A model generated the notes under the pieces. That model made no database searches and was not told the origin of the DNA. It worked only from the letters and a program-made list of their open reading frames with translations. A stretch of DNA of 64,000 bases from Paraspadella gotoi (taxonomy: Eukaryota > Animalia > Chaetognatha): positions 20,693,665-20,757,664 of the forward strand of contig CM119269.1 in the NCBI GenBank assembly GCA_051294375.1, in the 5' to 3' direction. This document shows, one piece after another, positions 45,232 through 52,041 of this stretch. Position numbers and translations under genes: made by a program. Every line of letters begins with the position of its first letter. Position 1 is the stretch's first letter.

Positions 45232-48200
45232 ATGCATTGTTATTTTCTGTGTGGCGGAAAAATTGTCGTCGCCATCGTCAAGTTCGTTGTCGTCGTTATC
45301 GTCATCATCGTCGTCGACGTCGTTGTCGTCGTCTGCGAGGGAATGAGATGCAAAACTGATTCACCACCTGAGCCTCGGGGCGAGGATCCTCGGTTGTGAT
45401 CGGGAAGAGAAGACGTCAGATTTGATTTCGATAAATCGCGTCATCGGTTATGCTTGGCGGATTGGTGATTCGTTTTTTTATCGCATCGTTTTTGTTCGCG
45501 GTGGAAAGTATATTGATTGATATATATTATATATCATATAAGTATTTTTTTCTTTTTTTCCGAACAACAAATTTCTGATTTTTGATACGTTCTTAATTTG
45601 TCTTTGGAGGTTTGGTGAAAAGTGATATTCTTTATTAAAACGTGTACTATGGCAACGGGAGGATAGCCTGTGATAAACGTGGCGCGGGGTACCTCCCCAA
45701 CTGGCGTAGGGGCTGCGGACCCTCAGTGACCGATTCCTGTCATTGGCATGTTAATACCGGCACCGTCACATTTAAGCCAGAACCGGGATACCCAGGGATG
45801 GAACCCGGGACGCACGGAAGGAATGAGATGATTTAGCCTGCTTAGCCATTGAGACGAGGCTGAGGACGGACAGCAGTGAGGCAGCTATAAGTCTTGCTGC
45901 CACAGTATAATGATAAATGAGCTCTTTTTTAAAGGTAGGACGATCAGTAGAAAGATTGGTTAGTCGATTCGTTGCGTGATTGGCTGTTTTTGTTTACGTT
46001 TTTCCCGCATGTTAACTCCATCTCCATCTTTCATCGAGCGTCAAGAACAGCTTTGGCCTTCGTCGAACGAAAATCCAATTGCCTATTTATCAATTGCGAG
46101 TCCAGTCTCACATCTCGAGCCTATTTTCGTACATACGTACATATTATACATATTATATTTTGACTGTTGATCCTGATATATTTTAAACATGATCGTAAAG
46201 TAATAGTAAACATTTTACTTGCATCTATGGCTTTAAATCTCCGACTTCTCGAAAAGATCATTAACGTTCTCGGGAATCATTTGGGCGGAACTAAATTTTA
46301 AATTAAGGGAAAAATAATATTGATATTATTCAATTATTATTTTTAGTGACTTTTTTATAGCCCACCATGTTGTTGAAAAAAAAAATCTTACGTACGTATT
46401 TTAAAAATTGGATATTGAAATTTAAAGAAATGGAGAATTTGTCGCAACACATTCACTATCGCCGCCCACCTGAGTCCATCAGCCCATCCCCGGTTGCGTA
46501 AGAACTTCCCACCAAGCGGTCTAGGGTTCGCGCCCCATTGATGTCAATGCTAGAACCGGGACGGGAAGTCTCACCCACCTGAAGTGGCGGACTACAGTCA
46601 GATCCGAACTTCTAATTATATGACAGAATATTGCGGTGGTACCTTATTAATTTAAAACAGCCTCACCCATTCACCACATCTAACCTTTAGAAAATTTGAC
46701 TAATTCACTACATATTATTATCTTAATGTCTCCTATCTAATATTATTACATTTAGAAAAAGGAACGGTTTACCCGTTTCTCTACCCCTTTTCTCTTTTCC
46801 TACTTTCCACCCCCGACAGCCTACACGGCACGACGCGCCACCGTGGGCGCGACTCGGACGAACTCGTCTTCGAGTCGACGATCCATTCCGTCGTTGGACT
46901 CGAAGAGTCGCTCTGCTTCCAGCTCACCGTCGCCGACGACGACAACGACGACGTGTTCGGGGTCAGACGAGAGACGCTGAAGGAACAGCGGAAAGAGGTG
47001 GGGGGAATATAAGGAATGGTTGAACATTGTTAATCCAAATTTGTGAACGGGTAAGATTTGAAATCTTTTATTTGATTCCCAAAGTATCACCGTCTCTTTC
47101 GTTTTTAGCTTTCATCCTCTTTTTTTTCTCATTCATACGCCTTTCTCCTTTTTTTACCATTTGCATTATATATTTTTTCCCTCTTTAACTTTAAGTTTCT
47201 TTGTTCTACCCCTGTCATTAAACCCTGTCTTTTCTCCTTCACCCTCTCCTCTCCTTCCTCCCTCAGATTCACCAAATTGTGATCCGCCTCACGTTTCTAT
47301 CTGTCGAGCACCATCACGAAGTCAAAGAGAGATACTCCTTTGCGATTCCCGAAATTCAAGAGGAATGCACCTGCGACTGTCCTGGTAAGATTTACATTGA
47401 GATTCAATTTAGATTTACCCCAAACGTTTCTCGATAAAGTGCGCCGTTACATGGATGTATATTGTATAATAATAATGTTGTATTCGATTGATTGTAATGA
47501 TACATAGAACTCGTGATTATACTTTAAAACAAATTCAACGAGATAACGAACTAAAAGTTTATTATTCTAATTATGAGCATGATTATTATATTTCTTGGCT
47601 CTAAAAGTTTTTATTTGCATCTGTCAATTACGGACAATCATTGTCAATTCCCGCCTCAACCCAACTTTCACTGCCCACGCTCATTGTCCACGAAGGCGGA
47701 GGCGATTTTTGTTGGGCGTCAATGACGGGGATGGCGTTGGCGTGCGACGATGATGATGACAACGACGGCTGCGTCAACAAATATTTCGGACGCCAATCGA
47801 CTTCCGGTTGTTTTATCAACGACGACGACGCAGAACTTTGTTGCAGAATCAAGGTAATTGATGTTTTTGCCGATTTGCTATTAAAATTTAAATCGTCTAA
47901 AACTCTCTCGTTTCTTTATTCAATTTTTTTATTTAGATTAGAACAAAATCTGGCAAAATCTACGACGCCTATTACTTGGGCGTTCCAAGAACGGTGGCCA
48001 AGTTCCAGGTAGAAGAGAAGAACGAAAGTTGAGTGAAAAAAATTTAACAACAATCATAAAAATGAAAACAAAAGGGTCCTAACAATGAATCTAATGACTT
48101 GAAATTCAATTACAAATATTTCAAGAAACTTTAAAATTTTCTCGTTTCTGAGACCATGTCAAACCCCCTCTTTGAACTCCTAAACCATGCATGAGAATAA

Positions 48201-51200: not shown

Positions 51201-52041
51201 TCAGTCTTGGGTGGAGGGCGTGGTCATTGGCGTTGAGATCGTGATCGCTCTCATAGTGATTGTCGCAGTCGCCAAGGTAAAGAACACACAAGATAATAAC
51301 ATAGCAGAACCCTGCAACCTTTCAATCAAGACTGTCTCACAGACTCGTTTATTCACTCCCAAAGTACCTGCCTTCCCTGGTTTTCGAGTCTTGATTCCTC
51401 TGCTATCAATGAAGTGGAATAATGTTTCAATGAATGTTTCAGTTGGATAAATGGATCATTCCCTTAAGTATATTAACATTGAAGTTAAAACAATATTGAT
51501 GGGATCTTAGATATTTGTCTATTGGCACAGGCTATAGGATCTCGAAGGGTTTTTCAGTTTTTCCGCTACCCGTAGCTTATCAAACAATTCTATCTTTTGC
51601 AACGAAAGTTCTGACAAATCAAATGAGTTTGAAGATGAAGCGTGCTAAATGCTGATGAACGAAACATCGAAACGGCCATATCGAACGAATAGTTACTATT
51701 ACGTCTCAACATGTTTTTATCTTCCCACCTCCCAGATTCTTCATATTTTATGCTCGATGTGCCCTTCACCTCCTCCTACTCCCTCTTCTTTCCGCTCTGT
51801 CTGGCCCCACTCCCGTGGCGACTCAATCCACTCCATCGCCGGCAACTCCTGGTGCTACGGGGGCTGCGGTCCTCGGGTATGCGGAGCCGGTGAAGGGGCG
51901 GATCACCGGCGAGGACCGTGCCTCGGATCACGTCGTCCGACGCCGTGTCTACAATCAATAGAGAGTCTCGCCTATGGAAGCGTTTGGGAAGAACCCTTCG
52001 CGTACAGGTCGTCTCGAATGACTTTTTATTATGTACTATAA
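45232..52041 (+). CDS. EFF-1/AFF-1 family (fusexin, class II-fold) cell-cell fusogen, ~718 aa; exons 45232-45392, 46820-46997, 47267-47384, 47696-47853, 47937-48008, 48271-48363, 48533-48660, 48833-49068, 49243-49408, 49640-49886, 50873-50989, 51100-51276, 51736-52041
   Basis: All 13 exons join in frame with GT-AG introns. Collinear FF-family motifs: GLEESLCFQL, SVEHHHEVKERYSFAIPEIQEECTCDCP, GCF...ELCCRIK, VTGG..SSIETGMYFS, SKLGWFK, FRVDVFANR, ICLHP...KICR, KFLNPVEWINGVQSWVEGV, then a single TM helix; N-terminal signal peptide. The 3' end of the last exon is uncertain (possible donor at 52008). Confidence 0.9.
45648..45904 (-). mobile_element. Solo-LTR-like element with tRNA-type A/B boxes
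   Basis: Ends TATGGCAAC / GCTGCCACA (imperfect inverted), flanks GTAC/GTAT; minus strand has TGGCTAAGCAGG (A box) and GGTTCCATCCC (B box) in a CCCGGG/CCTGGG stem. Confidence 0.6.
46440..46596 (+). mobile_element. Structured TG..CA element related to the 57890 family (partial)
   Basis: TGT..ACA ends; shares CCAAGC, TGCTAGA and CCCAC motifs in the same order; no TSD seen. Confidence 0.45.
49955..50280 (+). mobile_element. Nested solo-LTR-like elements: inner 49984-50223 inside outer TGTAGC..GCTACA element
   Basis: Inner copy is homologous to 57890-58174, starts TGTAGTC, ends GCA, flanks GGTC/GGTT; outer has perfect 6-bp inverted termini. Confidence 0.7.
50283..50735. mobile_element. Foldback MITE
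   Basis: TTTCGCATCAGCCCATATTTATACATAGTACTCACCATAGAAAATGTTCAAA (~50321) is inverted at ~50649-50700; pairing extends over most of the element. Confidence 0.8.
51288..51470 (-). repeat. Repeat family R, inverted copy
   Basis: Reverse complement aligns to ~44519-44675. Confidence 0.8.

Follow-up and report, generated by a model that had tools for sequence, protein, structure and literature searches.

The DNA analysed here, a stretch of 64,000 nucleotides that we call the window, contains on its forward strand an intron-rich gene of the FF family, to which the cell-cell fusogens EFF-1 and AFF-1 belong. The gene is real: it is spliced and transcribed, with an established structure from exon 2 through exon 13. 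We consider the chances about even that the full reading holds, namely that this is a host gene for a type I protein of the EFF-1/AFF-1 family that likely acts as a bilateral somatic fusogen, from an animal that probably falls outside the nematodes.

When the 13 exons of the original prediction, which had been drawn from the DNA letters, are joined, all 12 introns (83-1427 nucleotides) carry GT-AG ends and the spliced product is 2157 nucleotides long, corresponding to 718 amino acids and a stop codon, as claimed. The GC content is 52% in the exons and 36% in the introns. The motifs that had been quoted are collinear along the spliced model, and a hydrophobic helix is predicted at about residues 598-620, followed by a presumed cytoplasmic tail of about 95 amino acids. 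The proposed type I topology holds for this transmembrane helix and tail, while its signal peptide would correspond to a hydrophobic leader that is predicted in both of the N-terminal models discussed below. The exons, all on the forward strand, are as follows, where conserved columns are those conserved in at least 90% of EFF-1 sequences.

45232..45392 (+), exon 1 of the original prediction, doubtful; part of the valine run stems from a TCG microsatellite; other runs lack the ATG
46820..46997 (+), exon 2; second conserved Cys, start of domain I, acidic loop; 4 of 6 conserved columns identical; by itself no Pfam match and nothing meaningful in a PDB search
47267..47384 (+), exon 3; EHHH and CxCxC motifs; PF14884 at 41.3 bits, E value 1e-10
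47696..47853 (+), exon 4; tip of domain II, rich in Cys; PF14884 E value 7.5e-5; DDD at 47821-47829
47937..48008 (+), exon 5; 72 nucleotides, fitting a gap in contig 30 of run X9; 5 of 9 conserved columns
48271..48363 (+), exon 6; contained in X9 contig 30; 2 of 11 conserved columns
48533..48660 (+), exon 7; ETGMYF motif; a piece of X9 contig 30; PF14884 E value 0.057
48833..49068 (+), exon 8; LGWF motif, Cys344; PF14884 E value 0.15; 8 of 23 conserved columns
49243..49408 (+), exon 9; likely spans the boundary between domain I and domain III, a label assigned by position; PF14884 E value 0.046; 13 of 19 conserved columns
49640..49886 (+), exon 10; carries a 33-residue insertion at about 49692-49790
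50873..50989 (+), exon 11; Cys528 and Cys540; PF14884 E value 0.013, the query also containing intron bases; 5 of 8 conserved columns
51100..51276 (+), exon 12; stem lacking the CxxC pair (51124-51135), FLNP motif, transmembrane helix beginning at about 51217; 7 of 14 conserved columns identical
51736..52041 (+), exon 13; post-membrane CxxC, cytoplasmic tail of about 95 amino acids, stop; 3 of 3 conserved columns, which include both post-membrane Cys and leave the rest of the tail uncovered

Nine runs from one organism, belonging to three studies, contain the stretch, and they were compared over positions 44600-48660. None of the runs is recorded as RNA; X9 was taken as such since one of its contigs skips three introns. 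The pieces of this contig (contig 30, 821 nucleotides) are part of exon 4, exon 6 and exon 7. All five checked positions agree with the spliced model, and the 72 nucleotides of exon 5 fill the remaining gap exactly. Of the confirmation by RNA that had been proposed for the junctions, three of 12 were thereby obtained (4-5, 5-6 and 6-7, with exon 5 supported by its length only), the other nine lying outside this support. A second X9 contig spans exon 3 end to end and gives a weaker hint for both of its ends; in it 57 extra letters precede the exon that are not found on the adjoining intron. Several intron-only bins have zero depth in X9, whereas all 30 bins are covered by the DNA runs X3 and X5. 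The depth of X9 is 7.9, although contig depth is no measure of expression. Two exonic variants were found in one X3 contig, within exon 4, and both are synonymous.

The Pfam EFF-AFF comparison that had been suggested as a check was run exon by exon. Six of the 13 exon translations match PF14884 at profile positions that rise in exon order (27-62, 77-110, 183-210, 213-268, 297-346 and 397-435); exon 3 lies above the gathering score of 25 bits, the five others below it with E values from 7.5e-5 to 0.15. Exon 3 also matches four EFF-1 structures in the PDB (E value about 4e-6, 4OJD). Among 1.84 billion protein representatives it has three matches, from Enterobius, Ascaris and Gnathostoma, with 50-52% identity over about 31 residues. 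There was no candidate sharing three words with exon 3 among proteins of 71-2000 amino acids, and its search of the ESM Atlas gave unnamed short clusters only, all below 0.9. The full-length Enterobius protein, used as a query in turn, retrieved 29 proteins among 7659 candidates, all of them carrying PF14884 and the 25 named ones being nematode; 20 of these together with the Enterobius query form our alignment of 21 EFF-1s. Against the profile of this alignment the spliced model reaches 198.3 bits, the match extending over residues 72-629 and being broken by one insertion. The reversed protein scores -4.6 bits and the best of 200 shuffled versions 0.5 bits (82 with a reported score), so the match is not due to chance. 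The model is identical at 77 of the 157 conserved columns, with matches from every exon from 2 to 13. Membership in the FF family is thus borne out at the level of sequence, as is the divergence that had been noted: identity to the nematode EFF-1s is 21.7-26.5%, against 37-90% among the 21 EFF-1s themselves, and the protein therefore lies outside the chromadorean EFF-1 orthologue group.

The gene also appears to be long resident in its genome, as first proposed. X3 depth is roughly even across the gene outside repeats, and a search with the EFF-1 profile confirmed as relatives none of 54 pattern matches from viral contigs and none of 139 from metagenome contigs. Neither HAP2 nor a viral glycoprotein family occurs among the Pfam matches of the 13 exons, the single viral match being a weak one to a capsid on the doubtful exon 1. 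Of 139 flanking open reading frames none matches any Pfam family, and no reverse transcriptase, integrase or other retroelement domain was seen among the flanking frames scanned. The 12 spliceosomal introns, the even depth, the spliced contig and the absence of retroelement or viral relatives in these searches support an ordinary host gene and not a retroelement envelope.

The protein resembles C. elegans EFF-1 (4OJC, 4OJD, 4OJE, 4CYL) and its chromadorean orthologues in its predicted type I architecture and its collinear ectodomain motifs, in 13 of the 16 conserved ectodomain Cys (12 aligned exactly and one off by one column; the first conserved Cys hinges on the N-terminal model chosen), in the post-membrane CxxC and in acidic residues at the domain II tip. 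Unlike the EFF-1s it lacks the stem CxxC, the last two conserved Cys both being absent, carries an insertion of 33 residues (455-487, the profile match breaking at 454-488) and probably has a longer N-terminus. A hidden intron within exon 10 was considered and rejected, since the 10 best trial introns all have negative acceptor scores. At the tip, DDD (residues 195-197) aligns with EDD of EFF-1 in 4CYL, a match that is weak by itself (E value 0.58), and the segment from Cys158 to Cys202 has a net charge of -8, compared with -4 to +4 in the 21 EFF-1s. By alignment, not by structure, the domain II tip would be acidic and devoid of a hydrophobic loop; the acidic tip of EFF-1 is described as standing where viral proteins have their hydrophobic fusion loop (PMC4050280). 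Homology to PDB 4OJC predicts for the ectodomain a three-domain class II fusexin fold with seven disulfides.

The description of the gene as complete was not confirmed at its 5' end, where two upstream segments may provide an alternative start.

43197..43532 (+), candidate true first exon; ATG at 43197, hydrophobic signal-like segment; putative, with two alternative donors (43346 and 43532)
43799..43908 (+), candidate second exon; poly-Arg stretch followed by the first ectodomain Cys; putative; GC 57%

The four bases 45231-45234, which contain the ATG first assigned as the start, are missing from both other DNA runs that cover them (depth lacking the bases 241.1 of 241.1 in X3 and 14.1 of 14.1 in X5; X8 and X9 have no coverage there). 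Without them the frame of exon 1 can be followed back through 40 codons, none of them Met, until it meets a stop, which sits in a repeat passed over in the run comparison. The assigned exon 1 is probably wrong, because its ATG is missing in X3 and X5, it spans no column conserved in the EFF-1s, it lies in part on the TCG microsatellite, which is the source of part of the valine run, and its donor is weaker, with a middling score of 4.2 compared with 9.2 for 43799-43908, the best phase-2 donor 5' of exon 2. By splice score the latter segment is 4th among 950 candidate internal exons, and it comes 1st among the 206 that have a spacing of 33-38 between the first and second conserved Cys. This spacing is 37 with 43799-43908 and 46 with the assigned exon 1, and it is 33-36 in 17 of 18 EFF-1s. 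The exon beginning at 43197 joins 43799-43908 in frame and has a 15-residue hydropathy of 2.7; its two donors score 2.5 and 8.0, and the longer form, to 43532, adds a Thr-rich stretch. A profile of the EFF-1 N-terminus favoured neither candidate first exon (ranks 32nd and 315th among 398 donors). On balance we favour the model starting with 43197 and 43799-43908; it is doubtful that the assigned exon 1 is the true start, and a start in some other exon is just as doubtful.

Carrying over the mechanism from EFF-1 and AFF-1 (PMC8784728, PMC9259645, PMC6089408, PMC6504885), class II ectodomain monomers on apposed cells would meet in trans and would be needed on both membranes, in keeping with the bilateral action described for FF proteins (PMC8784728, PMC9259645, PMC6089408). 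They would then trimerise, and domain III and the stem would zip back towards the membrane anchors, drawing the bilayers into hemifusion and then into a pore. Insertion into the target membrane, as with HAP2 and the viral class II proteins, would not be expected of an acidic domain II tip. The likely outcome would be a syncytial epithelium, or self-fusion in tubes or neurites. Gamete fusion, which had been put forward as the other possible role, finds no support here; bilateral somatic fusion appears more likely, because there is no hydrophobic tip for a HAP2-like insertion.

As to the host, we lean towards an animal other than a nematode because of a gene like ARMC3 next to the FF gene and the scarcity of TTTCAG acceptors. 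The latter sequence, the C. elegans-type acceptor consensus, is found at 2 of 29 acceptors; this counts against Chromadorea only. The neighbouring gene lies 1.7 kb downstream.

53744..62622 (+), ARMC3-like neighbour; PF14381 with E value 4.4e-5 and 23.8 bits (cut-off 27)

A permissive search assembled it into an open chain of 19 exons and 921 amino acids that is very divergent; Pfam recognises solely its C-terminal domain, its exons have no PDB match, and the name ARMC3 is a tentative one that draws in part on the layout of that protein. Beyond this gene, the only Pfam result among 46 other open reading frame or exon queries was an exon of an OATP/SLCO organic anion transporter (843-1034, reverse strand; PF03137, E value 4e-17), whose gene leaves the window at the left end; its search returned one unnamed fragment among 137 candidates. 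Neither the FF exon nor the OATP exon has a close relative among named proteomes. ARMC3 belongs to the C2a projection, part of the motile-cilium central apparatus (PMC13345628), and nematodes are reported to have lost motile cilia together with 73 related genes (PMC5850483).

Several points weigh against the reading as a whole. Exon 3 is the sole exon that clears the Pfam cut-off by itself, and all three of its matches trace to nematodes. The protein lacks a stem CxxC that is present in 95% of the aligned EFF-1s and carries the 33-residue insertion relative to them. The acidity of the tip is no constant of the family, given the range of -4 to +4 among EFF-1s, and GAC repeats of the genome favour runs of Asp. 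The fusion role and the fold are predictions from homology. Regarding the host, the ARMC3 match is under the Pfam cut-off, ARMC3 is named neither in the text of PMC5850483 nor in the one supplement searched, SPEF1, another central-pair gene, is described as surviving in some nematodes (PMC12979858), and the nematode Romanomermis is reported to have a similar GC content (36%) and similar introns (median 405 nucleotides; PMC3890508).

These last points bear on the rival that we rate highest, if still as unlikely, which is that the same bilateral fusogen belongs to an unsampled basal nematode (enoplean or dorylaim) and is, for all its divergence, an ordinary nematode representative of the family. 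The best database matches are nematode EFF-1s, FF genes are known mostly from nematodes (PMC4723337), and the Atlas cluster is commonest in Nematoda, but nematode matches may merely mirror the content of the databases. A genome like that of Romanomermis, with a GC content of about 36%, introns a few hundred bases long (the median in the FF gene is 247 nucleotides) and many repeats (PMC3890508), would fit, as would the persistence of SPEF1 in some nematodes (PMC12979858). CpG is undepleted, at an observed/expected ratio of 1.25 over the whole window and 1.33 across the FF exons; this suggests that gene bodies carry little methylation, and it fits a basal nematode as well. Against this stand the ARMC3-like neighbour with its open frame and the OATP exon, for which there is no named nematode protein among the 137 candidates.

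The remaining rivals concern function. That the gene encodes an FF-derived surface protein which no longer fuses membranes and serves in signalling or adhesion, or else is a class II envelope gene of viral origin that was domesticated long ago for another task, strikes us as improbable. Identity of 22-26%, the lost stem disulfide, the insertion and a possible Thr-rich N-terminal extension would suit a non-fusing protein, yet conserved columns are matched in each exon from 2 to 13; and while a viral origin of EFF-1-type genes has been proposed (PMC9259645), the Pfam matches are to EFF-AFF and to no viral glycoprotein family, apart from the weak capsid match on exon 1, and no retroelement domain was found nearby. 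Slimmer still is the chance of a one-sided, HAP2-like gamete fusogen that has assumed the task of fertilisation in this lineage. HAP2 shares the structural superfamily (PMC8784728), the vertebrate orthologue of the ARMC3-like neighbour is required in sperm (PMC12979858), and depth in the single RNA run is low (7.9). The adjoining ARMC3 is, however, no evidence of co-expression, depth of a contig does not report expression, there is no hydrophobic tip, and HAP2 activity follows an insertion into the membrane that is absent from FF proteins (PMC6089408). A bilateral somatic fusogen in a host that is likely not a nematode remains the reading we prefer.

Other features of the window were recorded alongside. 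A duplication of 6327 nucleotides with 100% identity (7365-13691 and 14815-21141), each copy ending at a gap of 25 N, is probably an assembly artefact. GC-rich frames with splice-like ends occupy 33967-36890 on the forward strand (for example 35215-36225, 337 codons); they have no Pfam match and suggest a gene for a low-complexity protein. Two protein-like open frames at 28702-29504 on the reverse strand, again without a Pfam match, are possibly exons of an unrecognised gene. An open frame at 12-272 on the reverse strand, within the OATP gene, has no Pfam support and resembles what we take to be the end of a Penelope-type endonuclease. An AT-rich short repeat at 44600-44790, 40740-40846 and 31928-32014 reaches about ten thousand times the single-copy depth in X3, and positions of about 45650-45910 hold a second high-copy element; a high-copy repeat has no match in metagenome contigs. 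Two copies of a further element, 78% alike (57973-58174 and 50023-50223), are likely a short interspersed nuclear element derived from a transfer RNA, ARAGORN placing a tRNA-Tyr at 58011-58107. The window contains no telomere-type repeats, and there is no Rfam match in 1-48600.

The gene is a further member of the known FF family, whose occurrence outside nematodes is already in print. Nematode AFF-1 is a paralogue in the same Pfam family (PMC6504885); our comparison is with EFF-1s, the sole database match named AFF-1 being 47% identical to an EFF-1. FF homologues are on record from a chordate, a protist, a ctenophore and a small number of arthropods (PMC4723337, PMC5350521, PMC6504885), according to these sources as sequence predictions or models; those of Strigamia (T1ISJ2), Branchiostoma (C3Y7J9), Naegleria (D2W008), the ctenophore and some arthropods entered our comparison by description only. 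HAP2/GCS1, archaeal Fsx1 and the viral class II glycoproteins of the fusexin superfamily share the predicted fold class, and a feature-based query with EFF-1 recovers clusters of flavivirus E, alphavirus E1 and phlebovirus G2, but the ectodomain exons have no sequence match to them and the present gene lacks a hydrophobic fusion loop. In the available text of PMC12407032 and PMC10730927 EFF-1 is named for C. elegans only, and no FF report from further phyla was found in the literature searched, which most subscription papers lay outside. We suggest only tentatively that an EFF-1-type fusogen, intact and expressed, is present here in a phylum of ciliated animals from which none has previously been reported.

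Known cell-cell fusogens are few, and for most invertebrate phyla the proteins behind syncytium formation have yet to be identified. Were the host a basal nematode, the gene would be a routine though divergent member of its family. If the host phylum is new to FF genes, the origin of its syncytia becomes directly testable, with a candidate fusogen for its syncytial tissue that would work without the stem disulfide and perhaps become active after cleavage at the poly-Arg site. FF fusogens would then be old, intron-rich animal genes that were lost many times, and no nematode speciality. The gene is a useful branch for dating the FF family, and an FF gene at 22-26% identity that lacks a near-universal EFF-1 disulfide offers a natural test of what bilateral fusion requires.

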